From the NCBI RefSeq assembly GCF_004010195.1, contig NC_057719.1, positions 39,179,335 to 39,243,334 of the forward strand: DNA of 64,000 nucleotides, read 5' to 3'. Each line of letters begins with the position of its first letter. The stretch's first letter is position 1. The position numbers and the translations under genes are program-made. This document shows, one piece after another, positions 2,869-62,445 of the stretch. A model generated the notes under the pieces. The model did no database searches. It was not told the origin of the DNA and worked only from the letters and a program-made list of their open reading frames with translations. The DNA is from Chiloscyllium plagiosum (taxonomy: Eukaryota).

Positions 2869-4149
2869 AGGAGAGTTATTAAAATCTCCAGCACAGACAC
2901 AAATAGGACAGAGCCTATGGAAAGTGTAAGCAATCAAACTTTAAGCACACTGGACAAATGAATGACAATGCAAAGAAGGACAGTTAATACAGGACTAGAG
3001 GTGTTATATCTGAATGCATGCAGTATAAGGAATAAGGGATATGAGCTTGGAGCGTGGATCAAAATTGGGAGAGATGATGAAGTGAGCATCATGCAGATGT
3101 GGCTGCAAGTGGATCAGGATTGGAAGCTGAATATTCAAGGATGTACGTCCTATTGAAAAGATAGGTAGGTGGGCAGAGGGGGTGGGGTTGCCTTATTAGT
3201 AAAAAATGAAAATAAATCAATAGTAAGAAACAAAGTAAGGTCAGATGGTGTAGAATAGGTGTGGGTAGAATGGAAGAACCACAAAGGTGAAAAACAACAT
3301 AGTTGGTTATGTGCAGGCCTTCAAACAGTATCAGAAGTGGAGGTGCAAGATACACCAGGAGGCGGAAAAGATGTGTAGGAAAGGTAAAGTTACAGTGATC
3401 ATAGGTGATTTCAATATGCAGGAGAACTGGGAACATCAGTTTGGTAGTGGACTGCAAGAAAAGGCATTTGTGGAATGTTTATGAGATGGGTTTTTTTTGT
3501 AGCAACATGTGGTGGATCCCACAAGAATTTAGTGTTGTGCAATGAGGCAGACTTGATAAGGGAGCAAATGGTAAAGGAATCCTTAGGAGGCAGTGAACAT
3601 AATATGATTAAATTTACTCTGGAAGACATCCCAAAAATTCAAGAGTGATGGGGCAGATTTGAGTATGGTGGCCATCACCAAGGAGAAGGTGCTAGAAAAA
3701 CTGAATGGCCTGAAGGTGGATAAATCACCTGGACCAGATGGACTACACCCCAGAGTTTGAAGGGAGATAATTGAAGATACAGTGGAGGCGTTAATGGTGA
3801 CTTTTCAGGAATCGCTAGAATCAGGGAGGATCCCCGAGGACTAGAAAATCACTAATGTGACACTCCTGTTTGAAAAGGGAGTAAGGCAAAAGACAGAGAA
3901 TTATAGACCAACTCGTCTAAGATCCTGGAATTAATTGTAATGGATGAGATTTCTGAACACTTGGAAGTGTGTCGTAAAATAGGGCAAAGTCAGCATGCTA
4001 TCATCAAGGGGAGGTTATGCCTGACAAATCTGTTAGAATTCTTTGAGAAAGTAACAAATAGGTTAGACCAAGGAGAACCAATAGATGTCATCTCTTTGGA
4101 CATCAAGAAGGCCTTTGTCAAGGTTGCGCCTAGGAGGCTACTGAATAAG

Positions 4150-4499
4150 GTAAAGAGAATGCAAAGACTGCAGATGTTGGAGTATCAGAGTTGAAAAGAG
4201 TGGCGCTGGAAAAGTACGGCAGGTCAGGTGGCATCCAAGGAGCAGGAAAGTCGAAGTTTCAGGCATAAGCACTTCATCAGGAATGTAGAAGAGGAAGGGG
4301 AATGAGAGATAAATAGGGGGTTTAGGGTGATTGGGGGAAAGGTAGGTGGGAAGGCAATAGGTGGTTGCAAACCTGCATCTACCTATTGCCTTCCGAGCTT
4401 ACCTTCCCCCAGTCCCACCATCACCCCCAAACCCCCATTTATCTCTCATCCCCTTTCCCCTTCTATATTCCTGCTTTTCCAGCACCACAGTTTTCAACT
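4150..4499. mobile_element. PLE-derived fold-back insertion within the CR1
   Basis: The CR1 frame is interrupted between ctgaataag and ctgagtaag (imperfect TSD). The ends are inverted (gagttgaaaa...ctggaaaag / cttttccag...ttttcaactc). Confidence 0.65.
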
Positions 4500-6573
4500 C
4501 TGAGTAAGATAACGCCCCATGGTGTTAGGGACACAGTGCGAGCATGGATAGAAGCTCGGCTGTCTGGCAGAAAGCAGAGTGGGAATAAAAGGGTCTCTTT
4601 CAGGATGGCAGCCTGTTACAGGTGGTATTCCGCAAGGGTCAGTATTTTCACTTTATACATTTACAATCCAGATGAAGGAACTGAGGGCATTCTGGCTAAC
4701 TTTACAGATGATACAAAGATAGGTGGAGGGACAGGTAACATTGAGGAGTCAGGGAGGCTGCAGGATGATTTGGACAGGTTAGGAGAGTGGGCAAAGAAGT
4801 GGTAGATGGAGTCCAATGTGGAAAAGTGTGAGGTCATGCATTTTGGTAGGAAGAATAGAGGCATGGGCTATTTTCTAAATGGAGAGAAAATTCAGAAATC
4901 TGAAGTGCAAAGAGCCTTGGGAGTTCTAATCCAGAATTCTCTCAAGGTAAACTTTCAGGTTGAGTCTGTAGTTAGGGAAGCAAATGCAATGATGGCATTT
5001 ATTTTGAGAGGACTTGAATACAAAAGCAGACATGTACTTCTGAAGCTTTACAAGGCTCTGGTTGGACCACATTTGGAGTATTGTGTGCTGTTTGGGCCCC
5101 ATGTCTCAGGAAGGATATTCTAAAGCATGTTCAGAGGAGGTTCATGAGAATGGTCTCAGGAATGAAAAGCTTAATATGTAAGTAACGTTTGAGGACTCTG
5201 GGTCTGTATTCACTGGAGGTTAGAAGGATGAGGAAGGATCTAATTGAAACTTACAGAATACTGAATGAGCTGGACAGAGTGGATGTTGAGAAGATGTTTC
5301 CATTGGTAGGAGAGACTTAGACCCAAGGACACAGCCTTAGAGTTAAAGGGAAGACCCTTTAGAATGGATATAAGGGGAAATTTCTTCAGACAGAGAATGG
5401 TGAATCAACGGAATTCATTGCCACAGAAGGCTGTGAAGGCCAGGTCATTGATTATATTTAAGACTGAGGTAGACAGGTTCTTAATTGTCAAGAGGATCAT
5501 GCGTTACGGGGAGAAAGTTAGAGAAAGGAGTTGAGAAACCTATCAGCCATGATTGTTGGCGGAGCAGACTCAATATACTGAATGGCCTAATTTCTGCCCC
5601 TATGACTTATGATCTTAAAACTAGACAAACTGACTAAGCAGTGACACTTTTGACTCAGCATTGCTGTTAATTTATATGAACTGCTTGTTTTTAGGTTTTG
5701 CTTCAGTAAGCAGCGGGTTGTCTGTTTATATTTAGAAAGTATCGGAACTTCCAGTGGTCACCCTATTTAGCTAATCCCACTCAACTGACTTTTTGAAAAC
5801 ATTTTTTCCTTTTATAGGTTGAAGCTCATACCTTTCTCACCTTCTCTTCATTTGGTGGTTATTCAGGGAAAAAGAATGTATGAATATCAGTTATGCTAAA
5901 GGCTGGCCAACTCGTGAGAGCAGTTGAGGTGCAGGGCGATGGGGATGGGGGTGTTAAAAGAAGCCATATCATACTGAGATCCAAACCTCATTCAAATTAA
6001 ATTGATGTGCTGTAAATCCCAAATTGATATCTCAATACAGCTTTCAAATTTCAATATCAGGAGGAGAAAAGACTGCTGAGTTAAGAACAAACATATTCAA
6101 GTGAGGCTAGGATGTGGGTGGCGGGGACAGTGTTGAGGCTGTGAGAGTGGGAGGATTCAGAATCCCAGTGCATCAAATTAGTTTGATGGTGATCAAAGTC
6201 AAATTTCTGCTCCTGTTGGCTAATTGACATAATTAGTTTGGATCTTTGTAAGGCCTCTGTGTCCACACACCTCAAGAACCGTAATTGGAGTTCTGTGGAT
6301 GTTTCATATTTGTAAAGCAGCCTGTTATCTAGACCAGGCAGGCCCTCCCCCTGCCCCACAGCAGTGGGCCTTTCTGTGTTAGCAGCAGACTTCAGTGCAA
6401 GCTGCCTATTGATTCTCAAGGCCACTTTGCCACACCAACACAAGTCTTGGCAATTATTTTAAGAATCAGACAAAATCCCATGTCTGTCTCTTACACATTT
6501 ACACTGTTTAGTTTCAGCAAGATTATTAAATGTCATTATAGTAACTGTATACGCTGAAAGCTTGTGACAAGTC

Positions 6574-7875
6574 TAAAACAAAAACAGAAATTGCTGAAGA
6601 AACTCAGCAGGCCTGGCAGTGTCTGTGGAGAGAAAGCAGAGTTAATGTTTCAAGTCCAATGACTGTCCTTCAAAGCTGAGAGTAGCTAAGAAATGGTGAT
6701 CTATATTGCTGAAGACAGGGTTGGGGGCAGGAAGGAGAGGAGTGAGCAGATATGTGCAGGTGGAACCCAAAGAGAGGGGACAACAGTTAGGCAGACAGAG
6801 GGATAGATGATACTATGCCAGGGAGAAAGAAAAACTGATCATGGAGACCATAAGTAACTAAAATGGTTTGGTTGTGTTGAAAGCAGTCCATGTCATAACA
6901 GGGCCTACAGTGCAGGCGTGGGTATAGGGTATAGAGGAAGGTGTTCAGGTTCTAAAAGTATTGAACTTGATACGCAGTCATGAAGGTTTCAAGGTTCCAA
7001 GTAGAAAATGAGATGCTGTTCTTCCAGATCATGCAGAGTTTTGCTGGAGCACTGCAGTAAGCCTGTAACAGAGATAAGAACTCTTCATCGGGACACTATA
7101 AAAAGTTAACTCTGCTTTCTTCCCACTAAATGCTGCCAGACCTGCTGAGTTTCTCCAGCAATTTCTGTTCTTGTTTCAGATTTCCAGCATCTGCAGTTCT
7201 TTATTTTATTGATGTGCAGGTAAATTACTGCTTTGTCATGAAGAAATGTCTGGGGCATTGGATAGTGAGGACTAGGGAGGTAAATGGGCAAGCGTTACAC
7301 CTTTTGTGAAAGCATGAGAAGGTGCCATGGGGATGTTGGAAGGTTAAGGAAGTGGAGAAGGAGTGGACCAGAGGGAATAGTCCCTGACAGGGTAGGAGAG
7401 GGGCATACGTTTGGTGGTGGCCTCCCATTGGAAATGGGCTGATGACGTGGAAGGTAAGGATGAGAGGGAAGCTGTCGTTGTTGTGGAGGGAAGAGAAGGG
7501 GTGAGGGCAGAAGTGTAAGGAAAGGGTCAGACACTCACCCTATCAACTACAGTGATGGGGAATCCTTGGTTGAGGAAAAAGGTGGATATTTCTGAGACAC
7601 CCTGCAGAAGGTGACATCATAATATGCACTGCTTTCAACACAGTCAGCTAACGTTCAGCGACTTATGCTCCCCATTATCAGTTTGTCTTTCTCCCTGGCA
7701 TATTATTATCCATCCCTTTGTCTGCCCAATTGTTTTTTTTCTCTGGGTTCCATCTCCACCTATCCACTCATTTCTTTCTGGCTCCATCTTCAGCATATGT
7801 ACAACATTTTCCTTCCACTATTAGTTTTGAAGAAGGATCACTGGATTTGAAACGTTAGCTCTGCCTTCTCTCAGC
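6574..7875. mobile_element. Composite old Penelope-like (Neptune-type) remnant with oppositely oriented terminal repeats
   Basis: Terminal-repeat motif aaacagaaattgctg...ctcagcagg.ctggcag on both strands; minus-strand GTFSCFHKRCNACPF zinc-knuckle-like segment resembling 48310-49480. Confidence 0.65.
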
Positions 7876-7984
7876 AAAGTATTTATTACAGTTTTAACAG
7901 TATTAAAGCAAGTTAGTGCTGAATTTAATGTATATATTCACAGTTTAATGCTATTGAGACTACATCCTTAATAATTGAGCATGC

Positions 7985-8117
7985 AGGTGACTATCACCTG
8001 ATGTTGGAGCATTGCTCCGAAAGCTCGTGTGCTTCCAATTAAATCTGTTGGACTATAACCTGGTGTTGTGTGATTTTTAACTTTGTACACCTCAGTCCAA
8101 CACTGGCATCTCCAAAT
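7985..8117 (+). mobile_element. Short PLE-type terminal repeat of a second family with a degenerate hammerhead
   Basis: cac-CTGATGtt-GGAGC-att-GCTCC-GAAA-GC-TC-gtg; related sequence at 43974-44156 and 46895-46977. Confidence 0.6.
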
Positions 8118-8188
8118 CAGGATATTTATAGCTGAAAATGTGTTGCTGGAAAAGCGCAGCAGGTCAGGCAGCATCCAGGGAACAGGAG

Positions 8189-8224
8189 AATCGACGTTTC
8201 AGGCATAAGCCCTTCTTCAGGAAT
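8189..8224 (-). ncRNA. Minimal hammerhead ribozyme motif (antisense arm)
   Basis: Minus strand reads attc-CTGAAGA-A-GGGC-TTAT-GCCT-GAAA-CG-TC-gatt. Confidence 0.6.
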
Positions 8225-8428
8225 GAGGAAAGTGTGTCCAGCAGGCTAAGATAAAAGGTAGGGAGGAGGGACTTGGGGGAGGGGCGTCGGAAATGCGATA
8301 GGTGGAAAGGTGGATAGGTGACCTATCACCCTCACCTTGACCTCTTTCCACCTATCGCATTTCTGACGCCCCTCCCCCAAGTCCCTCCTCCCTACCTTTT
8401 ATCTTAGCCTGCTGGACAAACTTTCCTC

Positions 8429-8464
8429 AGTCCTGAAGAAGGGCTTATGCCCGAAACGTCGATT
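8429..8464 (+). ncRNA. Minimal type I hammerhead ribozyme motif (PLE-associated)
   Basis: AGTC-CTGAAGA-A-GGGC-TTAT-GCCC-GAAA-CG-TC-GATT: intact CUGANGA and GAAA core, 4-bp stem II, palindromic ACGT in place of stem III, helix I AGUC/GAUU; predicted cleavage after C8460. Confidence 0.72.
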
Positions 8465-8828
8465 CTCCTGTTCCCTGGATGCTGCCTGACCTGCTGCGCT
8501 TTTCCAGCAACACATTTTCAGCTCTGATCTCCAGCATCTGCAGACCTCACTTTCTCCTCCAGGATATTTATAGTCAGCTAAGGGATATTGTTTTCTCTAC
8601 AAATGAACTGCTCATAGTTTTAAAAACTAAGGGAATATTTGCATAAAGATTACCTAGAATTAACACTGCCAAATGTTTGCATAGTAGTAGTTTTACTGGC
8701 ACACAAAATGTTAACTCCAAGCTAGTAATCAACTTGTTTTTAAATTATTGAACCAGTTTTAATTGACATTCAAGCAGAAAAAATGGTTGATATTATCTGA
8801 ATATTAATAATGATTCTCTTCTGCCTAG

Positions 8829-9468
8829 AAAAAGACATTAAAGAACTTATTGAGCAACAAAGATATTTCAAAGCTGACCAGCATCTCATCAAGTTAGAAT
8901 ATGAGCGATACACTAATGATGTGGCAAATGACGAAAGCACCAAAAAGGAAGAGAAAGCCATTAATTCATTGTACGAGTTGCTTAGTGCTGAAATTTTCAA
9001 TGTGGTAAAAGAATCATTTAACATTTCCAAAGAACACCCAAATCTCTTGAAAATGGCAGTCCAAGTGAAAATCCAAGAAGAAAAAGCAGACCAAATATAC
9101 CTGGAAGAAAAGGAAAAATCTGGAAGTGTTCCTGAGTTCAGGCCGAGGCAATGGGACGCTAAATGGCTGAGCATTTTACAGCACTCCGTGAACGAAAGGA
9201 TAAGTGAACCACTCAGTGGTTCTGAAGACAGTAAGACTGACTGGCTCACACAGTGTTTAGTGCAACTTCGTAGCCAACTCAAAGCAGATTTTGACACCAT
9301 TGTGAACTGCATTAATCCATGTTACCCTGAGGAATACAATATATGTGTGAAGTATGCTGAATGCTATTGTAAAACAGTTTCTTCTCATATCTCATTATTA
9401 GCAGAGAGTGGACTGAAAGGAAAAGAAGTTTATCCACTTCTCTATTGGATTAATAAGTGCTATCCAGA
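8829..9468 (+). CDS. TNFAIP2: TNFAIP2-like coding exon A (large exon)
   Basis: Acceptor ttctcttctgcctag, donor GA|gtaagt; encodes KDIKELIEQ...RPRQWDAKW...INPCYPEEYNIC...LLYWINKCYP; phase 1 in, phase 2 out. Confidence 0.92.
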
Positions 9469-10204
9469 GTAAGTCACTCTGATTCTTTTCTTACTATATT
9501 ATTTTCTTAACCGTTGGAAATTTAAATTACTTTGAACATTATAAATTTCTCAGATGCCAATCTCTTTTCACGCCGAGAAATGAATAGAAAAAGTGCTATC
9601 AACCAAACAGTGTTTCCTCTACAATTTAACTTGAATTTTAATCACTGACCTCAATTACTCATAGAACTCAGCATTTTTAGCATATTGATTTCTTTGTGGA
9701 TATTTTCAGTAAATTGCTGTTCCATTCAAATTTGACCCCTTTACATACACACAATTCTTTGCCTGTGTAGCCTCTGTAAACCTCCCTATTTTTTTTTCAT
9801 AAAGAGTTTAAGGCACCTGGATGATTTTTTAGAATTGTTTTCTGCATTCTTTATGAAGAAACAACTTCCACTGTTTGACATCTGACACCACTTACGTGTG
9901 GAGTTCTAAGTGAAATGAAAGGTTGACAATTCTGTTACTTAAAATGCCGCTGCATTATTATCACCAAATTGCTGACTGAGTTAAATAATTTAAGTATGTA
10001 TTTTAGTGAATATCAGATTTGGTTAGATGCCATAGACTTAGTGCATTACTTCGTATAAAAGAGTTATGTTTTGCAATTGCCTAATTTATCAGTATTCATC
10101 ATTTAACTCGCTGGTAGGAGATTTTGATTTAATGCCACTGTCAAAGCTGACTTGCAAAGCCAAAACATCTAATATCAATCCATGCTATGCTCGAAATGTA
10201 TTGT

Positions 10205-12155
10205 GGGCCCGATGGAAGAGGGTGGTAGAGAATTTTCCTGGGGTGGGAGGGGTCTTTGATGTTGGTTGCTTCCCTGAGGCAGCAGGAAGTATAGATGGAG
10301 TCAGTGGGTGGAAGGGTGGTCTGCATGATTGACTGGGCTGTGTTCACGACTCTTTATAGTATCTTGTCTTGGGCAGAGGGTTGCCGTACCAAGCTGTGAC
10401 GTATCCAGATAGGATGCTTTCTGTGGAGCATCTATATAAATTGTAAGAGTCATTGCTGACATGCTGAATCTCCTTAGCCTCCTGTGGAAGTAGAGGCATT
10501 GGTGTGTGTTTACTTGACAGTAGCATCGGTGGACCAGGACAGATTGTTGGTGATATTTACTCTGAGGAACTTGAAGCTCTCAGCCATCTCCACCTCAGCA
10601 CCATTGGGGTATGTCCTCCACTTGGCTTTTTGAAGTCAATGACCAGTTCCTTTGATTTGCTGACATTGAGGGACAAATTGTGTCTTTACGCCATGTTGTT
10701 AATGTTCCAACGCAGCAGTGAAACCCCTCTGCTAATTAAACCAAACACCCAGAAAATCTCACCTTGCCTCGTAATCTATTAAAATATGAGTGACAGAGAA
10801 CTCCATAAATTCCACTACCTAAAGAAAAATATTAATTTTATTCTTTAACTCTAAAGTTAACATTAAACAACAACTATTTATAACTCTAAGCCCCTTTTCT
10901 CTTAAAGTCTGTTTTTTATCTCCAACTCTATAACAGTATACTGATCCAATAAAGACCCATATTAAAACTGCATCAACTTAATTTTCAAAATCAGACAGCA
11001 GCTGTCATCATCAGTGTTGGTCTTCTTTCAGCTGCCAATCCCCCAGGTCATCTTCAGTCTTTTCTGCGATGATATTTCAAATGAAAAAGGTATCTTTGAT
11101 AGAGAGTGTTTTGAATGACAGTCTCTCTTAAATGGCAGGTTGCACTCTCTCTCCTGCTAACTCTCAAAATGTCAGTTTATGTATACCCTAAACATTGGAT
11201 TGTCTCATTAGTTCAATGTTGTCAAAACAGTAAAAGTCAAATTTGATTGGGTTCTAGTATCCTGGGCATAATTTAAGCTGATTGGTTAAATTCAAACTGT
11301 TATGAACATAGCAGCCAAATGTTACATATTTTCAATTTTCAGTACACTCTGAGACTACTAGTCAGTCAATGGCAGGTGCCTGCAAACTCTCACTGCCAAA
11401 ACAACTTTCACTCTCTCTTAAAGGTACAATATACACCTTCAACTTCATAACACTAAGCTGTCTGTCTCTTTTCTGTTCTCTGTCTCATCGTTATTTGAGA
11501 TCCAACCCACGACAGTGCTGTCATCAACAAATTTGTGAATGGAGTCAGAGCTCGATTTGGCCACACAGTTGTGAGCGAATAAAGAGTACAGTAAGTGGCT
11601 GAATACGCAACCTTGCAGGGCACTGGTGTTAAGGATTATGGTGGAGGAGGTGTTGTCGCCTGTTCTTTCTGATAGTGGACTGTGGGTCAGGAAGTCGAGG
11701 ATCCAGTTACAGAGGGAGGAGCAGAGTCTTGGGTCTCGGAGTTTGGAGATGAGTTTGGTTGGAATTATGGTGTTGAAGGTAAAGCTAAAGTCAATAAGTA
11801 GGAGTCTGACGTAGGTCTCCTTGTTGTCCAGATACTATAGAGATGAGTGTAGGGCCTGGGAGATGGCATCTGCCAGTTGTGATGGTAGCAAACTATAGTG
11901 GATCAAGGCATTTTGGGAGGCTGGCATTGACGTGAGCCATTACTAATCTCTCAAAGCATGTCAGAGCCACCAGGCTGTAGTCATTAAGGAACATTGGCTG
12001 ATTTTTCTTTGGCACCAGGATGATAGTGGTCTTTTTGAAGCATGTGGGAGACTCGCATCAGAGTGAGGAGAGGCTAAAGATGTTTGTAAGTAATCCCACC
12101 TGCTGATCCATGCAGGATCTGAATGTATGCCCAGGGACTCCATCCAGCCTGTCGT
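10205..12155 (-). mobile_element. Degenerate Rex1/Babar-type LINE, interrupted by an LTR-like segment
   Basis: Minus strand [17 protein letters not shown]...[10 protein letters not shown]...LNTSALQGC and YRCSTESILSGYVTAWYGN. Confidence 0.8.
10697..11452. mobile_element. Solo-LTR-like insertion
   Basis: Begins TGTTA.. and ends ..TAACA, splitting the Rex1/Babar element; no ORF and no clear TSD. Confidence 0.5.
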
Positions 12156-20419: not shown

Positions 20420-20541
20420 TAAGGGCTTATGCGCGAAACGTCGATTCTGCTGCTCCTCGGATGCTGCCTGACCTTCTGTGCATATCCAACACCACACTCT
20501 TCAACTCTAACCTCCAGCATCTGCAGTCCTCACTTTCTCCT
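20420..20541 (+). mobile_element. Short PLE terminal-repeat fragment truncated inside the hammerhead motif
   Basis: aagggcttatgcgcgaaacgtcgattc...ctgcagtcctcactttctcc, same family as 8440-8559. Confidence 0.75.
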
Positions 20542-24990: not shown

Positions 24991-26541
24991 GAGAGATGAG
25001 CAGAAAACGAGTGATGCTTCTGGAGTGAAATGCTGTGTGTGTACCCCTTAAATATAGCACTGGGAATTTTGAGATCAGTGGTCCCAATAGGAGCCAGAAT
25101 GTAAATAAAAAAACTGAAAAAAAACTGCAGATGCTGTAAATCGGAAATAAAAACAGAGGTACTCGAAAAGCTCAGCAGGTCTGGCAGCATCTGTGAAGAG
25201 AAATCAGAATTAATGTTTTGGGTCCAGTGACCCTTCCTCAGAGCCCAGTGTCTGGCTGCAGTTCCAGGGTGTGACGATGACGATTGCTCTGTACACTAGG
25301 ATTGTAGTTAACTCACTGAGACCTTGTCAAAGGTTCGCTGCCAAGTCTATACCCATACTGTTCTCACACTTCTCATCCAGATGTATGACAATGGATGACC
25401 TTTCGAGAAAAACAGCTGCCAAGTTATAGGAAGTACTCAAAATAATCCACAGCTAACTTATAAATGTTGAATATTTTACTGACCAAGCATGGGTTAATAT
25501 ATGAGGTTTTTTAAGGCAAAGTTCAACAACAGACTGGTTTTCTTCTATGCAAAATCGAAGAGATGGAAAATGACTTGCAAATCTGTTGCAGAATGGGCAA
25601 TGACACTGCAATTGTCTGTGAACTGTAGTTTGTCTGCAGTTGTCAGGTTAGTTTTGCCTCGGAGGCATCCCCTGAAGTCATCAGTTAGTGGTCAAAGGCC
25701 AGATGGGTGCGCAGCTCATGAAGATGGAAGGCCAGAGGTATGACTACCAGCTCAGAGAGAAACGGCTGGCTTCAAATCAGTTCAAATAGAAAAGCCGCCT
25801 CTGTTTCAAAGCACAGCCTCGGCAACATTTTAAACTTTAATGTTAAGAAGATAGACTCAGCCAATAGGTCACTGTTTAATCCCACGACAAGAGAAATAAA
25901 CATTTTTTTTTGTGTTCTAATTTGTAGGACAGAAATTACTGTATTTTTTCAAAAAAAAAGGTTTTTCTTAGCTTCCTCTGATAGAATTCAAATATTTTAA
26001 GAAAAATGTGATGGCTGAGCTAATGCAAAGTTTTAGCTACAAAGCTATAATTTTCTGTAAACTGTGGTAAAGTCACAGCACATACTCAACTTCAGAACTT
26101 TTTATGTACAATATTATATCCGAATTGCTGCTGTAAGTCTGAAGATTGCAATCAACAGGAAGTGTTTAGGTTCTTCTTAAATGAATGGTTACATTCCATG
26201 AAAGAAAACCGCACAAAATTATGATCTAAGGATGGAAATTTCCTCTCGCAAATGAAAGGGTCTCACTTAAGGTCTTAAGTGATGCTTTTCATTACTTCTT
26301 GTAGAATATAGTAAATGTTATGATCTTTATAAATGCTCAAATGAACTCCTCAATTGAACTAGTATTAAATTAGCTGCAATTTAACTGCCCTGCGTCAGTG
26401 TTATAGAAAAAGTGTAGCTGTGAGTCAGTACGCAAACATAACATGGTGCTAATGTTGTTCATTTGTTAATCTAGGCTAAGACCTACGCATCATCTGTAGT
26501 CCACACCTTCATGAGGACCAACTGGGTTGATATCAACTTGG

Positions 26542-26742
26542 AAAAAATGAGGACTGCAGATGTTGGAAATAGAGTCAAGAGTGTGGTGCTGGAAAAGCAC
26601 AGCAGGTCAGGTAGTATCCGTGGAGCAGGAGAATCGATGTATCAGGCATAAGCCTGATGAAGGGCTTATACCCGAAATGTCGATTCTCCTGCTCCTCAGA
26701 TACTGCCTGACCTGCTGTGCTTTTCCAGCGCCACACTCTCGG
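26542..26742. mobile_element. PLE-derived fold-back with a central hammerhead-like motif
   Basis: Inverted arms gagtgtggtgctggaaaagcacagcaggtcagg / cctgacctgctgtgcttttccagcgccacactc; CTGATGA-A-GGGCTTATACCC-GAAA-TG-TC at 26654-26681. Confidence 0.8.
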
Positions 26743-27017
26743 CCTCACTAGATTGATAGTAATGCTGACAAAGCTCCTCTTGACTCTTTCTTCATCTATA
26801 TCCCTTCGATGTTTCTGAGTGTGCAGAATCTGCTTGAGCATCCTCTATAATGGTGTTTAACTGTGAAAAGCCCCATGCTGTACACCTTTTCAGTATGGGG
26901 CATTGAGCTATGAGGAAGATTGAACACATGGGCTGCACACTGAATGTGTCACACTCTTGAATGTCAGTTCATTCCTTGAAAAGCTCACACATAGGAAAAC
27001 CTTTAGGTTCAATTCTC

Positions 27018-29002: not shown

Positions 29003-29510
29003 TCATAGAGTCATAGAGGTGTACAGCATGGAAACAGACCCTTCGGTCCAACCTGTCCATGCCGACCAGATATCCCAACTCAATCTAGTCCCACCTGCCA
29101 GCACCCGGCCCATATCCCTCCAAACCCTTCCTATTCATATACCCATCCAAATGCCTCTTAAATGGTGCAATTGTACCAGCCTCCATCACTTCCTCTGGCA
29201 GCTCATTCCATTCACGTACCACCCTCTGTGTGAAAAATTTGCCCCATAGGTCTCTTTTATATCTTTCCCCTCTCACCCTAAACTTATGCCCTCTAGTTCT
29301 GGACTCACTGACTTCAGGGAAAAGACTTTGTCTATTTATCCTATCCATGCCCCTCATAATTTTATAAACCTTTATAAGGTCACCCCTCAACCTCGGACGC
29401 TCCAGGGAAAACAACCCCAGCCTGTTCAGCCTCTCTTTATAGCTCAAATCCTTCAACCCTGGCAATGTCCTTACAAATCTTTTCTGAACCCTTTCAAGTT
29501 TCACAACATC
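29003..29510 (-). mobile_element. Young 5'-truncated CR1 LINE
   Basis: Open 139-aa C-terminal frame KLERVQKRF...LFSLERPRLRGDLI...FFTQRVV..WNELP plus a (ctatgact)n tail. Confidence 0.92.
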
Positions 29511-29804
29511 TTGCTTTCTTTGCCTAACACATATTTTTGAATCTCAGTCAGCCTAAATAAGAGACAACACAGATTATCATTGGCCTTTATGTAAAAAGAG
29601 TTGATTCTACGTTCACTTTTCATTATCCTCACACTAATTCTAAGATATCCCCTTGATCTTAATTTCCCATCAAAGGAAATAAATTATTTTGTTCTACCCC
29701 ATTAAATCCTTGTCAGATTTTGAACATTTCAGAAATACGTAAAGCAAAGAAACCTAATAATCTAATTAATTAAACTGAATTAATACATACAATATTTTGT
29801 TTAC

Positions 29805-31548
29805 TAGGAGAAAGTGAGGACTGCAGATGCTGGAGATCAGAGCTTAAAAATGTGTTGCTGGAAAAGCGCAGCAGGTCAGGCAGCATCAAAGGAACAGGAG
29901 AATCGACGTTTTGGGCATTCTTCAGGAATGAGAAGGGTGTGCCAAGCAGGCTAAGATCAAAGGCAGGGAGGAGGGACTTGGGGGAGGGCGTTGGGAATAT
30001 GATAGGTGGAAGGAGGTTAAGGTGAGGGTGATAGGCCGGAGAGGGGGTGGGGGTGGAGAGGTTGGGAAGAAGATTGCAGGTCTTCCACCTATCGCATTCC
30101 CAACACCCCTCCCCCAAGTCTCTCCTCCCTACCTTTTATCTTAGCCTGCTTGNNNNNNNNNNNNNNNNNNNNNNNNNNNNNNNNNNNNNNNNNNNNNNNN
30201 NNNNNNNNNNNNNNNNNNNNNNNNNNNNNNNNNNNNNNNNNNNNNNNNNNNNNNNNNNNNNNNNNNNNNNNNNNNNNNNNNNNNNNNNNNNNNNNNNNNN
30301 NNNNNNNNNNNNNNNNNNNNNNNNNNNNNNNNNNNNNNNNNNNNNNNNNNNNNNNNNNNNNNNNNNNNNNNNNNNNNNNNNNNNNNNNNNNNNNNNNNNN
30401 NNNNNNNNNNNNNNNNNNNNNNNNNNNNNNNNNNNNNNNNNNNNNNNNNNNNNNNNNNNNNNNNNNNNNNNNNNNNNNNNNNNNNNNNNNNNNNNNNNNN
30501 NNNNNNNNNNNNNNNNNNNNNNNNNNNNNNNNNNNNNNNNNNNNNNNNNNNNNNNNNNNNNNNNNNNNNNNNNNNNNNNNNNNNNNNNNNNNNNNNNNNN
30601 NNNNNNNNNNNNNNNNNNNNNNNNNNNNNNNNNNNNNNNNNNNNNNNNNNNNNNNNNNNNNNAGGAGTGGGAAGTGGAGGAGATGCGGTGGATAGCATCG
30701 TCAACCACATCTGAGGGGAAATTGCAGTCTTTGAAGAAGGAGGCCATCTGGGTTGTTCGGTATTGGAATTGGTCCTCCTGGGAGCAGATGTGGCGGAGTC
30801 GAAGGAATTGGGAATATGGGATGGCGTTTTTACAGGGGGCAGGGTGGGAGGAGGTGTAATCTAGGTAGCTGTGGGAGTCAGTCGGCTTATAGTAAACGTC
30901 CGTGTTGAGTCGGTCGTCCAGATATGTGGAACAGTCCATCTTCCGCAGCTACACTGGCACCACTCCCCACCTTTTCCTCCGCTACATCAATGACTGTATC
31001 GGCGCTACCTCGTGCTCCCACAAGGAGGTTGAACAGTTCATTCACTTTACTAACACCTTCCACCCCAACCTCAAATTTACCTGGACCGTCTCAGACTCCT
31101 CCCTCCCCTTCCTAGACCTCTCCATTTTTATCTCGGACGACCGACTCAACATGGCAACACGATGTCTGGAGGAAGAGCGCCTCATCTTCCACCTAGGAAC
31201 CCTCCAACCACAAGGGATGAATGCAGATTTCTCCAGCTGTCTCATTTCCCCTCTCCCCACCTTTTCTCAGTCCCAACCCTCAGACTCAACACCGCCTTCT
31301 TGACCTGCAATTTTCTTCCCGACCTCTCCGCCCCCAACCCCTCTCCAGCCTATCACCCTCACCTTAATCTCCTTCCACCTATCGTATTCCAAACGCCCCT
31401 TCCCCAAGTCCCTCCTCCCTACCTTTTATCTTAGCCTGCTTGGCACACCCTCCTCATTCCTGAAGAAGGCTTATGCCCGAAACGTCGATTCTCCTGTTCC
31501 TTTGATGCTGCCTGACCTGCTCCGCTTTTCCAGCAACACATTTTTAAG
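29805..31548. mobile_element. Rearranged Penelope-like (Neptune-type) element with inverted terminal repeats and 15-bp TSD
   Basis: RT segments FLRYINDC...HPNLKFT...LPFLDL (+) and TDVYYKPTDSHSYLDYTSSHP..CKNAIPYSQFLRLRHICS (-); C-terminus LIFHLGTLQPQGMN; TSD caatattttgtttac (29790-29804) / caacattttgcttac (31549-31563). Confidence 0.88.
30153..30662. other. Assembly gap (510 N) inside the PLE
   Basis: Run of N. Confidence 1.
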
Positions 31549-34845: not shown

Positions 34846-34975
34846 CCCTGAAGAAGGGCTCATGCCCAAAATGTCGATTCTCCTGCTCCTTGGATGCTGC
34901 CTGACCTGCTGTGCTTTTCCAGCAACACATTTTTCAGCTCTGATCTCCAGCATCTGCAGTCCTCACTTTCTCCTA
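34846..34975 (+). mobile_element. Short PLE terminal-repeat fragment
   Basis: cctgaagaagggctcatgcccaaaatgtcgattctcctg...cactttctcc; the hammerhead GAAA is mutated to AAAA. Confidence 0.75.
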
Positions 34976-35339
34976 GGATTTTACAACAATCCATAATGGT
35001 ATCATTGGCACCTTTGCTGAGACTAGATTTATGTATTAAGTTTAAACTCCATCAGCTATAAAATAGTGCTTTAAACCCTGTCCCCTGGGAATTAACCAGG
35101 ATCTCCTGTGTTGTGAGCTAAAGAAAAAAAAGCAAAGAACTACAATGCCAGAAATCAGAAACAAAAGCAGAAACTGCAGGAAAAACTTCACATCCAGAAA
35201 AACTGAAGTGTTCTGAAGAGGGGTCACTGGACCTGAAGCGTTAACTCTGCTTTCTCTCCACAGATGCTGCCGGACCCACTGAGATTATACAGTAGTCTCT
35301 GGTTTTGTTTCTCTTTGTGGGTTGTCGCAAAACCATTGC

Positions 35340-38300
35340 ACCACTCTTTTTCCCCTGAACTTTCTGCACATACTGATGGACCTCTGTTTGTGGATAGCAT
35401 GTTGAGCGAGCTGGTCATACCATAAGTAAGGGCTGCACTGATAGAAAAGCATTGGGTGACCACCAGGAAGACGAGTAAGTGTGGGCAGACAGTGCAGAAG
35501 TCCTGTGTGACTAGCCCCCTTTCAAATAGATATTCCATGTTGGATACTGTTGGGGGAGAATGGCATCTCAAGGAAAGCAGCAGCAGCCAAGTTTGTGGCA
35601 CTACAGTTAGCTCCGTCACACAGCAGGGGAGGAAAAAGACTGGGAGAGCTTTCATGATAAGGGGTCACGATTGTAAGGGTAAGTGGTAGGTAGTCCTGTG
35701 GCAGCAAACAAGCCTCTTGAATGGTGTGTTGCCTCCCTGGTGCCAGGTCAGGGATGTCTCAGAGTGGCTGCAAGGTGTTCTGAAGGGAAAGGATGAACAG
35801 CAGCTGTGATACATGTTGGTACCAATGACATGGGTTTAAAAAAGAGGTCCTGCAGCAGAAATTTGGAGAGTTCGGTGGTAGATTAATGAGGAAGACTGTT
35901 AACGCTGTAATCTCCAGATTACTTCCGCTTAGTACCATGTGCTACTGAGTATAGAAACAGAAAAGTAGGTCAGATGAACACGTAGCGAAAGGGATAGTGT
36001 AGGAGGGAGGGATTTAGATTTTTGCATCACTGGGACAGTTTCTGGGGTAGGCGGGACTTGTACAAGCTGGACAGGTGGCACCTGAACTGGAATGGCTCCA
36101 ATATCCTTTGCTCATGCTGTTGGGGAGGTTTTAAACTGATTTGGCAGGGAATGGGGCACAGAGCAGATGCAAAGTCAGGAGCAAGGTCCAATCAGACATA
36201 GAAGGAAGACAGAAAGGGCATGGGCATGATAAGGCACATACGAGGTCTAGAAAGCTGCATTGTATCTATTTTATTGCGAGGAACATGACTGATAAGGCAG
36301 ATTAGCACAAAGGAATATGATATTGTTGCAAACACTAAGACATGAAGAAGAATAGGACTGGCAGTTCAACATTCCAGGGTAAAGAAGTTTCAGGCACAAT
36401 ACGGGATAAGTCAAAGAGGTGAGGGCATTGCTTTATTGATAAAGGAAATAATCACTGCAGCAATGAGAGAGGGTGTTCTCAAAGGGTCTTCAAATGAGGC
36501 CATCTGGGTAGAGCTTAGACATAAAAAAGGGGTGATTACTTTACTGGGATTGTACTACAGGGAGATAGTCACAGAAAGATAGAGGAGCAGATATGTAGGC
36601 AACTTACAAAAAGGTGTGAGAAAAACTGGGTTACAATTGTAGGGGACTTCAACTTTGTTAGCATTAACTGGGTTCACCTAGGTGTGAAAGGATTAGACGA
36701 GGTGGAATTTTGAAAGTGCATGCAGAGGGTTTCTTGCACCAGTATGTACATAATCCTGCTAGAGATGGGGCAGTACTCGACTTCATCCAAGGGAATGAAG
36801 CTGATCGAGTGGTTGCAGTTTGAGTGTGCGAGCATTTTGGGAATAGTGACCATAAATCTGTAAGTTTCAAAGTCATTGTGGAAAGGGTTAGGAATAGTGT
36901 AAAAGGTAAGTTACGTTAACTAAATTGGGGGAAGGAAATTTTTAGTATCATTGGACAGGATCTGGCAAACATAGACTGGGAGCAGATACTTGCAGGTAAG
37001 TCTATATTTGGAAAGTGGGAGTCTTTTGAAAGTTGTATATTGGGAATTCAACGCCAGTGTGTACCTCTAAGAGTGAAGGGCAAGAGCAGCAGATCCAGGG
37101 AATCCTAAATGTCAAGGGATATCAAAAATTTGATAAAGAAAAAGAAGGAAGCATATGTCAGGTACAGGACATTAAGTACAGGGGAGGCCCTTCAAAAGTA
37201 CAGAGAGTGTAGGAGGTTGCTTAAAAAGGAAATGAGGAGGGCATGGAAGGACCATGAAATAGCTTTGGCAGTTGGGATTAAAGAAAACCTCAAAGCATTT
37301 GGCGGCGGCATGGTGGCTCAGTAGTTAGCACTGCTGCCTCAGCACCAGAGACGCAGGTTCGATTCCAGCTGTCTGTGTGGAGTTTGCACATTCTCCCCAT
37401 GTCTGCGTGGGTTTCCTCCCACAATCCAAAGATGTGCAGGTCAGGCGAATTGGCCATGTTAAATTGCCCATGGTGTTTAGGTACATTAGTTAGGGATAAA
37501 TGTAGGGGAATGGGGCTAGATAGGTTACTCTTCGCAGGGTCGGTCTGGACTTGTTAGGCCAAAGGGCCTGTTTCCATACTGTAGGGAATCTAATCTTATA
37601 AGTATGTTAAGAGTAAGAGAGTTATCAGTGAAAGGTCCCTATTAGAGATCACAAGGCAACCTGTGCATAGAGCTAGTGGATGTGGGTAAGATCTTAAATG
37701 ATGAAGGGCTTATGCCCGAAACATCGATTCTCCTACTCCTCGGAAGCTGCCTGACCTGCTGTGCTTTTCCAGCACCACACTCTCGACCCAAGCATAGTTC
37801 ACCATCTTTCAGGTCTGATATTGATCAACTGGTAAATATTTCAGAGCATTGACAGATGGAGTTTAATCTTGATCAGTGCAAGGTGATATATTTTGGGGAT
37901 CAAATAATGGAAGAATATACACAATGAATGGTAGGTTCCTAGGGAGTACTGAGGAACAAAAGGATCTTTGTGTACAAGTCCATTGATCCATGAAGGTGTC
38001 AGCTCAGGTAGACAAGGTGGTGAAGAAAGTCTACAGGATGCTTGCCTTCATTAGCTGGGGTGTTGAACATAGGAGCCAAGAAATCTTGTTAGAATTTTAT
38101 TAAACTTTGGTTAGGTGACAGATGGAATACTGTACAGAGTTCTGAACACCACACTATTAGAAGGGTGTGATTGTACTGGAGAGGGTGTAGAGGAGACACA
38201 CCACATTGTTACCTAAAATGAAAAATCTAGTTATGAGGAGAGATTGGATAGGCTTGGTTTGTTTTCCTTGGATTAGAGGAGGCTGAGGGAGGATATGATT

Positions 38301-42848: not shown

Positions 42849-43973
42849 AAATCATCGAGAAAGCATCAAAAGAGTGATTTATTTTACTAAACAACAAACA
42901 GATCATTGTTGAATAATAACTTGTCACTTTGTTTATACAATGGAGTGTTTCCTACTGTGACACACTCACCAGCCTGTGGTTGCTGTCTAAATAGAAAAAT
43001 AAGTACTTGCATTTTATGGAGCACTTGTCCTCAGCATATCTGAAAGAACTTTATTTCTTTCGGGATTTCTGACTACATTGTTACAGAACATTCCTGGCCT
43101 AATATGTGGTAAAATGCAAATTTACCTCTAACTTATATTTGTACATTCGGATTCAAACAGTGTATTGCAGATATATTGACACTCTACTGTTAGTTCAGAT
43201 CCTGCTGCTGCTTTGACATCATTATTCATCAAAGCAAGTGGCAGCAGTGGTGAGAGTCATTATCAAATTATGTTGACTGATTCTGCTTTTGCATAGTTGG
43301 AGGAGCAGTGGATAAGAAATAGTCTATCTGACTAATAATAGACAGGAGTGACCGGCTGACATTAAACAGAACAACAAACTGCTCCATAACGAGGTCCTGA
43401 TCGGGTCTGAAAGCCACACTGCAATGGTTCACATTCAAGGCAATTTTTGTACAGAAAGCAAAATCATTCTGAAAATGTCAAGAATATAATCCATTCAAAG
43501 TTTTTTTCAAATTTTTTTTTACATTTTCATAAGATGTGTGTATTGTTGGCAAGGCCAGTGTCTGTTGCCCATCCCTAATTGTCCTTGAACTGAGTGACTT
43601 GCCATGCCATTTCAGAGGGTAGTTGATAGTTAAACATCTTGCCAGGGGTCTGAATTGACATGTCGCTCAGACTTAGTAAGGACAGTAGGTTTTCTCCCCT
43701 GAAGGATGGTAAACAAGATGACTTTCTACAACCGTTTGATTGATTCATGATTTCTATAAAATCGAGTCTTTGTTGTTAGATCATAAAACCCCTACAGTGT
43801 GGAAGCAGGCCATTTGGCCCATTGAGTCCACACAGACCCTCTAAAGAATTTTAAAATATTTTATATACAAACAATTTTCACACTTGGATTATGAAGTTTG
43901 TTATTATTTTCCAGGCCAATTGTCACAGATCACTAGGTGTTGCATCTTAGTAGGAGAGACACAATTATTGAGT

Positions 43974-44156
43974 TAAAAATCACACAACACCAGGTTATAG
44001 CCCAACAGCTTTATTTGGAAGCACTAGCAGGTGGTTGTGATGAAGGAGCAGCACTCTTCCATATAAGGTGCTTCCATATAAATCTGTTGGACTATAACCT
44101 GGTGTCGTGTGATTTTTAATTTTGTACACCCCAGTCCAACACTAGCATCTCCAAAT
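43974..44156. mobile_element. PLE-type fold-back insertion with 14-bp TSD
   Basis: TSD cacaattattgagt at 43960-43973 and 44157-44170; inverted arms of about 50 bp. Confidence 0.8.
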
Positions 44157-48309: not shown

Positions 48310-49480
48310 AGTTTAACAGCTTCAATTAGGATAATTAGCTGCCATTTCTGCCACCTCCAGTGTGATGCCACACCAGACACACATCCCCCTCCCCTCTCCT
48401 GTCAGCCTTCCATAAGGACCTTCCCCCGGGACACCCTGGTCCACTCCTCTTTTACTTCCAATGCCCCCACAGTCCTACGACACTTTCCCCTGCAACTGCA
48501 GAAGGTGTGATACCTATCCATTTAGTTCCTTCCTCCTCAGTATCCAAGGGCCCAAACACACCTTCCAGGTGTCACCTGCACTTCACGCAATCTAGTCTAC
48601 TGCATTCACTGCTCACCATGTGGTCTCCTCCACATTGGGGAAACAAACCTTAGACTGGGTGATCGCTTCGCAGAACATCTACATTCTGCACACAGAAAAG
48701 AACCCGAGCTTCCAGTTGCCTGCCACTTTAACACACCACCCTGTTGCCTGGCCAACATCTCTGTCTCAGGCTTGCTGCAGTGCTCCTGCGCAGCTCAGTA
48801 CAAGCTGGAAGAACAGAAACCGAAAGAACTGTGGATGCTGTAAATCAGAAACAAAAACAGAAGTTGCTGGAAAAGCTTGGCAGGTCTGGCAGCATCTGTG
48901 GAGAGAAATCAGGTCTAGTGACCCTTCCTCAGAAGGGTTATGAAGAAAGGTCATGGGAAATGAAAAGTTAACTCTGATTTCTCTGCACAGATGCTGCCAG
49001 ACCTGCCAAGCTTTTCCAGCAACTTCTGTTTTTGTTTCTGGAAGAACAACACCTCATTTTCCATTTTGGGAACTCTACAGCCTTCTGGACTCAATATCAC
49101 AATGAACAATTTTAGGGCATGAGACACCTTCTTCTATGTCATTGCCCAACTCCCATACAAGATGCCTTGTTATCACATGGTCTGCTTTTACACACAACCC
49201 ATTGTTAGCTACTGATTATCCCCATTAGTAGCTTTTCAGCCTCTAGCCAGATCGTCATTCACTTCTTTGTCTGTCCAACTGTTTTCTCTCTTTGGGCTCT
49301 ATCTCCACCTATTATTTACTCCTTACCCTTTTCCTCCCACCCTATCTTCTGCCTTAAAAAACATTTTCCTAGTTAGCATCAGAACTGAGGAAGGGTCACT
49401 GGACTTGAAACGTTAACTTTGGTTTCTCTCTACAGATGCTTCCGGATGTGCTGAATTTTTCCAGTAATTTCTGTTTTTGT
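48310..49480 (+). mobile_element. Penelope-like (Neptune-type) 3' portion: zinc knuckle, GIY-YIG endonuclease, terminal repeat
   Basis: TFPCNCRRC..., TCTSRNLVYCIHCSPCGLLHIGETNLRLGDRFAEHL...PVACHFN, LEEQHLIF..GTLQPSGLNI; hammerhead-like CTGAGGA-A-GGGTC-ACTG-GACTT-GAAA-CG-TT at 49385-49414. Confidence 0.85.
48816..49037. mobile_element. PLE fold-back nested in the PLE endonuclease region, 11-bp TSD
   Basis: TSD ctggaagaaca at 48805-48815 and 49038-49048; inverted arms of about 65 bp. Confidence 0.85.
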
Positions 49481-58377: not shown

Positions 58378-58667
58378 TTGAGCAGCCACATTGTTACAAG
58401 GCCATTTCTCCATCCAATCATTTTAAAATGTAGACATTCCTTTGCTATATGAATTCCTGCAATACATTCTGTGAGAGCACAGCTGTCTATTGGGAATGCA
58501 AAGTTTTGATCGCAACCTTCATGAATATCTGGCCTTAGCCTGGGATGACATGCTGACAGGATACTTGTTCCTATTTGTTAATCCAACAATCCCTCCTAGG
58601 AGGTGTGTTGTGTGAAAAATAGATAAAAACATTATAAAGTTGAGCTATGATTCTCCATAAAATCAAA

Positions 58668-59130
58668 AGATGTTGCCAGGGTTGGAGGAGTTGAGCTATA
58701 GAGAGAGGCTGAACAGGCTGCAGCTGTTTTGCCTGGAGCATCGGAGGCTGAGTGGTGACCTTATAGAGGTTTACAAAATTATGAGGGGCATAGATAGAAT
58801 AAATCGACAAAGTCTTTTCCCTGGGGTCGGGGAGTCCAGAACTGGAAGGTATAGGTTTAGGGTGAGAGGGGAAAGATATAAAAGAGACCTTATGGGCAAC
58901 ATTTTCACGCAGAGGGTGGTATGTGTATGGAATGAGCTGCCAGAGGATGTGGTGAAGGCTGGTACAATTGCATTTAAGAGGCATTTGGATGGTTATATGA
59001 ATAGGAAGGGTTTGGAGGGATATGGGCCGAATGCCGGCAGGTGGGACTAGACTGGGTTGGGATATCTGGTCGGCATGGACGGGTTGGACCGAAGGGACTG
59101 TTTCCATGCTGTACATCTCTATGACTCTCT
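58668..59130 (+). mobile_element. Young 5'-truncated CR1 LINE
   Basis: 126-aa open frame LPGLEELSYRERLNRL...WNELPEDVV...KRHLDGYMN; tail ctctatgactct. Confidence 0.92.
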
Positions 59131-62313: not shown

Positions 62314-62445
62314 GGCAAAAACAAGGACTGCAGATGCTGGAAACCAGATTCTGGATTAGTGGTGCTGGAAGAGCACAGCAGTTCAGGCAGCATCCAAGGA
62401 GTTCGAAATCGACGTTTTGGGCAAAAGCCCTTCATCAGGAATATG
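62314..62445 (-). mobile_element. Short PLE terminal-repeat insertion with 12-bp TSD
   Basis: TSD ctttggctatat at 62302-62313 and 62446-62457; minus strand CTGATGA-A-GGGC-TTTT-GCCC-AAAA-CG-TC. Confidence 0.8.

Follow-up and report, generated by a model that had tools for sequence, protein, structure and literature searches.

In this work we have examined a hammerhead ribozyme motif at positions 8429-8464 on the plus strand of a 64,000-nucleotide stretch of Chiloscyllium plagiosum DNA (the window), together with the gene and the repeats around it. The gene is TNFAIP2-like and belongs to the Sec6 family. Its large coding exon (8829-9470, plus strand) encodes residues 99-312 of the protein P0002, gives a Pfam Sec6 match, is 99.5% identical to this C. 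plagiosum TNFAIP2a-like protein and is found in spliced contigs. Runs of exactly matching peptide placed eight of the nine later coding exons, at 97-100% or with overhanging ends, and residues 1-8 and 9-98 are encoded by exons upstream of the window. Because exons lie on both sides of it, the motif is intronic; it stands in sense orientation in an intron of about 16.5 kb, 364 nt 5' of the acceptor at 8829, in agreement with the preliminary description of this DNA, which had put it in sense about 365 nt before the large exon.

The same description had read the motif as a hammerhead with every core nucleotide and an ACGT palindrome. Reading of the sequence and a strict descriptor (core, stem II and a stem I of at least 2 bp) agree on this, and all parts of a minimal type I hammerhead are present. 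Stem I (8429-8432 with 8461-8464) has 4 bp including one G-U, the core extends from C3 at 8433 to 8439 and is followed by an inserted A at 8440, stem II (8441-8452) has 4 bp, GAAA occupies 8453-8456 and the palindrome 8456-8459, and the predicted cut falls between 8460 and 8461. There is a single base between positions 9 and 10.1, a G10.1-C11.1 pair, a palindrome at 15.2-16.2, a short helix I and no stable helix III. The G at 8430 is a rare variant, seen in 1% of 73 aligned copies of the repeat family described below, with T in 98 of 99 reads; it gives the motif its 4-bp stem I, the usual stem I of the family having 2-3 bp, and it is also found in locus L002. In the whole window the strict descriptor has exactly two matches, the motif and an antisense twin at 8189-8224 on the minus strand (C3 at 8220) with a G10.1-U11.1 wobble and a 2-bp stem I. 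It found 0 matches in 30 locally shuffled windows and none in the 9.9 kb upstream of the window (L064), where 2,685 N, like the 1,010 N of the window itself, could conceal a further copy. A looser hammerhead pattern matched the window 16 times, against 8.2 by chance. A search of both strands had been proposed as a check; the descriptor recovered the motif and its twin, but an Rfam scan returned no hammerhead model at E ≤10 and matched the surrounding hairpin with miRNA models only.

The two-armed insertion and its surroundings

The preliminary description overlooked an inverted repeat of 192 nt around the motif (8130-8321 against 8332-8523, 95% complementary), whose right arm contains it. The whole unit, 8130-8557, is an insertion between 14-bp target-site duplications at 8118-8131, the last 2 bases of which are common to the arm, and at 8560-8573. 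Its long arm (8322-8557, plus strand) is a pseudo-LTR with the hammerhead and a tail and covers family positions -111 to +124, C3 being 0. The short inverted arm (8130-8321, minus strand) covers -101 to +90, is without the 34-nt tail and is predicted to pair with the long arm in the pre-mRNA. With the arms ending at +90 and +124, reverse transcription would have been primed from both strands of a staggered cut, at two fixed positions of the RNA some 34 nt from each other. The insertion appears to be recent because the arm is 98-100% identical to dispersed copies: over 226 nt it is 100% identical to a copy on another contig and it is 98-99% identical to 38 more, among the best 40 scored of 981 first-look genomic candidates. 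At a site which separates subfamilies the two arms differ, ACAC against ACAA, as they also do in L027, and two template RNAs may have contributed to one insertion; most other two-armed loci that we viewed have matching arms. The insertion landed at the end of a damaged hammerhead of a second family (7998-8026, plus strand; A9U, palindrome AGCT).

The region is predicted to fold at -401.9 kcal/mol (z -39), with 34 of the 36 motif bases paired outside the motif. In the folding model the pair probabilities of stems I and II in context are 0 to six decimals, and forcing the hammerhead fold costs 56.6 kcal/mol in context, 5.3 in the right arm alone and 0.1 in the isolated motif. In simulated growing transcripts ending at 8400, 8440, 8464 and 8480 the sense arm was 94-96% paired. 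The antisense arm would be transcribed first and would pair with the emerging sense arm, so that the catalytic and the substrate halves would both be unavailable; the motif is thus predicted to be buried in a duplex of about 190 bp, formed before the motif is transcribed. This is a nearest-neighbour prediction, however, and in the cell the duplex could be undone by the action of helicases, editing or RNA-binding proteins.

By eye, possible cryptic acceptors (a pyrimidine tract and CAG) were seen at 8430 and 8563; the rare G at 8430 creates the acceptor-like site at 8420-8430, and the junction of tail and duplication creates that at 8545-8563. No use of either was seen in the RNA reads of the locus. 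Reads were examined over 8325-9600. Contigs from X1 and X2, which are RNA only by guess, hold the exon 8829-9470 and continue into other sequence at both ends or at one, as spliced RNA would; X19 is poly(A) single-cell data, sampled at about 2 in 100. Exon depth was about 5-fold, 92% of reads run on into other loci and nearly all repeat reads stem from other loci. At this thin coverage the depth of the unique intron at 8583-8797 was 0 in each run giving reads, and no pile of molecule starts or ends marked 8460/8461, which is a weak test given such depth and reads mostly from other loci. Differences of the A>G type occur at 6 places in the family reads; they come from many loci and could be separated from differences between copies only with matched DNA.

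By one BLAST criterion the window contains 11 family copies covering the motif. In the gene's part of it, 6 sense copies stand beside 4 antisense ones (binomial p 0.75), the latter previously overlooked. The six further sense copies which had been listed earlier do exist and are in sense orientation, but none of them passes the strict descriptor and the one at 35213 belongs to another family. The copy at 20421-20540 (plus strand) is truncated within the core and has an intact substrate half without CUGANGA. That at 26654, in a second, small two-armed insertion (26540-26743), is damaged: it is without the 5' strand of stem I, has a mismatch in stem II and lies inside its own hairpin. A third two-armed insertion (29807-31544), which retains remnants of RT and thumb and is interrupted by an N gap, holds the copy at 31460. 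This copy lacks one base and has its inverted partner about 1.5 kb off; it pairs with 29901-29929 in the fold, and its substrate half survives. Inverted partners are found for two of the six as well as for the motif with C3 at 8433. Short family copies lie at 34847-34973 (plus strand; G12A) and 37699-37779 (plus strand; without C3 and palindrome), and the damaged hammerhead-like motif of the different repeat family, at 35209-35246 (plus strand; A15.1G), is unmatched by the family query. An antisense copy (4155-4285, minus strand) is in the same intron as the motif, and another (62324-62442, minus strand) is past the last coding exon of the gene. Other repeat families form hairpins from inverted repeats at 48846-49040, 43973-44119 and 4278-4473. 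Reading frames at 676-1380, 4326-5123, 11445-11834 and 29085-29543 (all minus strand) and at 58661-59050 (plus strand) resemble fragments of LINEs.

The retroelement family and its copies in the genome

Judged from its sequence, the family is a young Penelope-like retroelement, probably of Neptune type. The earlier suggestion of a minimal type I hammerhead from a Penelope-like element is confirmed by a reverse transcriptase (RT), a GIY-YIG domain, a pseudo-LTR, a tail and a target duplication, the RT and GIY-YIG evidence coming from two different copies (L060 and L024), both broken. In L024 a GIY-YIG domain (E 7.5e-6) precedes the right-arm sequence of the family, and a C-x4-C-x2-C linker in P0001 lies ahead of this domain. 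The design recurs at full size in L060, where an RT frame of 674 residues (RVT_1, E 8e-9) is accompanied by a 3' pseudo-LTR that carries hammerhead and tail, by an inverted arm of 1.2 kb upstream and by a 15-bp duplication. The tail in L166 and L119 continues into the ORF leader, with the conserved frame beginning about 165 nt after C3, which places the ribozyme in the 5' leader of the element. The location of the hammerhead in a pseudo-LTR was confirmed in all four of these loci, and the family has the features of an EN+ Penelope-like element, namely RT followed by a C-terminal GIY-YIG, pseudo-LTRs in inverted or, as in L119, direct orientation, a one-sided tail and a target-site duplication (TSD). 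A survey of vertebrates found Neptune and Poseidon only. A CX2-5CxxC linker is described as a feature of the Neptune clade that is common to Nematis (PMC8557442). L119 (2135-2711) is also a natural direct tandem, though a partial one: its two intact hammerheads are separated by 334 nt, it has a 16-bp duplication, and it would suit a cis-dimer assay better than the locus in the window.

Among 139 copies chosen by BLAST and not by structure, variation between subfamilies is found at N7 (T 0.54, A 0.42), in loop II and at position 1.3. The non-CpG core positions are conserved at ≥0.94 and the CpG positions decay by 13-24%; since the sequence 3' of the motif is conserved too, the informative contrast is that of N7 and the loop with the core. 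Other sampled families retain the palindrome, as ACGT or AGCT. In the random sample (L065-L144 and L175-L234) at least two further minimal-hammerhead families are intact, one of them with a 6-bp stem II.

To estimate copy number we sampled 140 stretches of ten kb, taken at fixed coordinates from 40 contigs and amounting to 1,356,167 called bases. The motif is covered by 199 copies in them, of which 129 come from the first 80 stretches and 70 from the following 60. This is about 147 per Mb, which extrapolates to some 0.52 million; 47 of the copies are intact, extrapolating to about 0.12 million. The window, with 11 copies against 9.2 expected, is not enriched (P 0.32). Counting as pairs only partners within 100 nt, 113 of the 240 copies that extend past the motif have a head-to-head partner and 2 of 240 a tail-to-tail one. 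One long and one short arm make up 52 of the 56 close pairs, and such hairpins occur about every 24 kb (56 pairs in 1.36 Mb). As 27 of the 47 intact copies stand alone, with no inverted partner up to 3.5 kb away, the genome would, by extrapolation, tolerate unprotected copies in the tens of thousands. We also considered whether the antisense twin protects the host, with unpaired copies decaying faster, and rejected this: 20 of 69 paired and 27 of 68 unpaired copies are intact (Fisher p 0.21), a difference in the wrong direction.

RNA start and probable cutting of the family ribozyme in vivo

The 5' ends of the copies bear on where the RNA starts. Copies beside N or a stretch edge, and those whose upstream flank recurs at a second locus (in the first sample, 14 of 118), were left out of the counts. 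Of 172 genuine 5' ends between -20 and +60, 99 are at -5 to +6 and 16 at -20 to -6, while 38 further copies reach beyond -20. In the reads, 116 loose 5' ends occur at 8431 with unrelated letters upstream. Since the 5' ends are at the first bases of the ribozyme, most copies appear to derive from uncut RNA, as is the case for PAc, a Poseidon element of Anolis. Of the 172 ends, 9 are at the cut (+26 to +30) against 4.9 expected, which is not a significant enrichment (P 0.06), and ordinary 5' ends at +28 number 3 of 104 in the first sample. The 5' edge falls on TCATTCC, which resembles an initiator. Alternatively, the edge could reflect a nick at ATT and not a transcription start; ATT is given as the preferred nick motif of PAc (PMC11167929). 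A cap-derived G before A(-4) was found in 7 of 11 cases in the first 80 stretches (p 0.01) but in only 1 of 5 in a prespecified replicate of 60 (p 0.78), and we do not retain it. A 3' splice site as the source of the edge was also rejected, the family having no AG there and the upstream flanks being unrelated or inverted.

The joins between U6 and the family bear on cutting in vivo. Among the 30 best of 48 scored U6 loci, U6 is joined directly to related subfamilies at +28, the first base past the cut, in two loci. In L241 (G000:C10:28340192-28343298) the U6 3' end is joined to the Penelope family at this base, and in L258 (G000:C7:109200994-109204093) the same join occurs in both arms, with a 13-bp duplication, which indicates that the join was already in the template. 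RtcB is reported to join the cyclic-phosphate ends of U6 to 5'-OH RNA (PMC6789731), and hammerhead cleavage leaves a 5'-OH (PMC6155905). The family ribozyme therefore probably cuts in vivo; the evidence, two U6 joins, is indirect and concerns the family, not the copy at 8429. We lean, cautiously, towards a wider reading in which the minimal hammerhead cuts in the germ line, U6 becomes joined to the 5'-OH of exactly the cut base ahead of retrotransposition, ordinary copies derive from uncut RNA starting at the first nucleotide of the ribozyme, and the 8429 copy is a working ribozyme switched off by its antisense twin. If this is true, cutting in vivo would be demonstrated for a class not previously shown to be active in animals, with about 10^5 intact genomic copies.

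Meaning of the locus and comparison with known systems

Taken together, the observations very probably mean that a young and very abundant Penelope-like retroelement brought its pseudo-LTR hammerhead into this intron on one arm of a head-to-head insertion. A long RNA hairpin is predicted to bury the motif, which is therefore likely inert with respect to the host gene. There are points against inertness: at 4 bp its stem I is better than that of most of the family, the family ribozyme appears able to cut in vivo, and an enzyme half needs only a substrate half as partner, which the copy at 20421 retains. Could several copies in the one pre-mRNA then pair through the ACGU palindrome, cut at 8460/8461 and in this way change splicing or give rise to small or circular RNAs, as was originally proposed? 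The motif is indeed intact, sense and intronic, a strand-swapped dimer of the isolated motif is computed at -16.9 kcal/mol, and substrate halves remain at 20421 and 31460 in a family that seems to cut in vivo. But the isolated dimer favours another fold, at -24.9 kcal/mol, and the in-context cost of burial given above applies on top of this. There is no second intact sense copy in the called sequence, and 12 kb and three exons separate the motif from the closest sense copy downstream, itself damaged. Neither copy number nor strand is enriched over background, no RNA ends are listed at the cut (at weak read coverage), and even the direct tandem of L119 costs 18.5 kcal/mol to force into a cis dimer. 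We consider cis dimers in this pre-mRNA very unlikely, and our results do not support the proposal; the geometry of the locus argues against the effect on TNFAIP2-like splicing.

It is also conceivable that the duplex of about 190 bp is itself the active entity, a substrate of ADAR, Dicer or a helicase some 300 nt before the acceptor which modestly tunes splicing or yields small RNAs. Its length and stability, the A>G differences and the two good-looking cryptic acceptors speak for this. The A>G differences, however, cannot be told from copy differences among many loci, the lack of reads or contigs at 8583-8797 gives no sign of exonisation, and a hairpin of a kind met about every 24 kb is unremarkable; on this evidence an active duplex is improbable, if less so than cis dimers. 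The least credible of these alternatives, and one to which we give hardly any weight, is that the copy has been domesticated as an intronic ribozyme, in the manner of the amniote RECK hammerhead. Domesticated intronic hammerheads do exist (PMC6155905) and the motif has a complete core, sense orientation, an intronic position and an improved stem I, but its arm is identical to that of a copy on another contig, hence recent, its stem I variant is common to L002 and it has no stable helix III. Returning to the buried retroelement arm, its ribozyme would act on the element's own RNA, probably with the help of protein, and not on the TNFAIP2-like pre-mRNA. The locus itself matters little, being one among very many retroelement stubs. 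It does provide a caution for ribozyme scans: where an intact core is found in a Penelope-rich genome, an adjoining antisense arm should be looked for.

How does the family compare with known systems? The minimal hammerheads of metazoan Penelope-like pseudo-LTRs described by Cervera and de la Pena (2014, PMC4209133) have the same type I core, with the single 9/10.1 base, G10.1-C11.1, the palindromic 15.2-16.2 and a short helix I, and the same paper describes thousands of dispersed single copies and close opposite-strand pairs, as here. Helix II has 4 bp here and 7-8 bp in the Schistosoma families, and the copy number of about 0.5 million (0.12 million intact) contrasts with 4,000-9,000 in coelacanth and Xenopus. 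The portions of that paper considered here do not name sharks; they report no cleavage for a single minimal motif and little for dimers. Insertions of EN+ Penelope-like elements are described as having an inverted 5'-truncated copy, a one-sided tail of 30-40 bp and a TSD (PMC8557442, PMC3846280); the shark family shares with them the head-to-head arms, the tail on one arm, the TSD and the order RT then GIY-YIG, as well as the CX2-5CxxC linker of Neptune/Nematis type with the elements of PMC8557442. Unlike those insertions, the shark arms are mostly stubs of 85-130 nt, with 5' ends clustered where the ribozyme begins. Metazoan non-LTR retrozymes (bioRxiv 10.64898/2026.07.22.740005) are likewise non-coding, hammerhead-bearing and related to PLE pseudo-LTRs, but they are tandem direct repeats whereas the window locus is an inverted pair; no direct repeat was found in 7500-9500, and we rejected a retrozyme at this locus. 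When the literature was searched for Penelope hammerhead ribozymes in sharks, a single review came up, where 'shark' describes the shape of the motif (PMC6155905). In the titles and opening lines of abstracts returned by this and related searches, which were on subjects other than U6 together with Penelope, neither the family nor U6 joins at a PLE ribozyme are named.

A functional parallel can be drawn with PAc (Frangieh et al. 2024, PMC11167929). There, as probably in the shark family, two internal RT start sites define the tail, both strands are cleaved and extended, uncleaved RNA is the main template and the ribozyme is active only with protein; the layout of one long and one short arm agrees with PAc, for which two RT start sites and extension of both strands are shown in vitro. 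The ORF of PAc begins in stem II but the shark frame about 165 nt after C3, and for PAc no RNA-seq ends were found at the cut, which in the shark family is marked by the U6 joins. These joins resemble the U6/LINE-1 chimeras made by RtcB ligation (Moldovan et al. 2019, PMC6789731), in which the U6 3' end is likewise joined to 5'-OH retroelement RNA and then retrotransposed; unlike those chimeras, the shark joins are at one defined base, the ribozyme cut, in both cases found. The kind of element is already known, and the family fits the Penelope-like layout described in these papers. What it adds is two testable handles on such elements: the U6 joins at the cut base, for whether the weak ribozymes act in vivo, and the 5' ends at the edge of the ribozyme, for the start point of the RNA.
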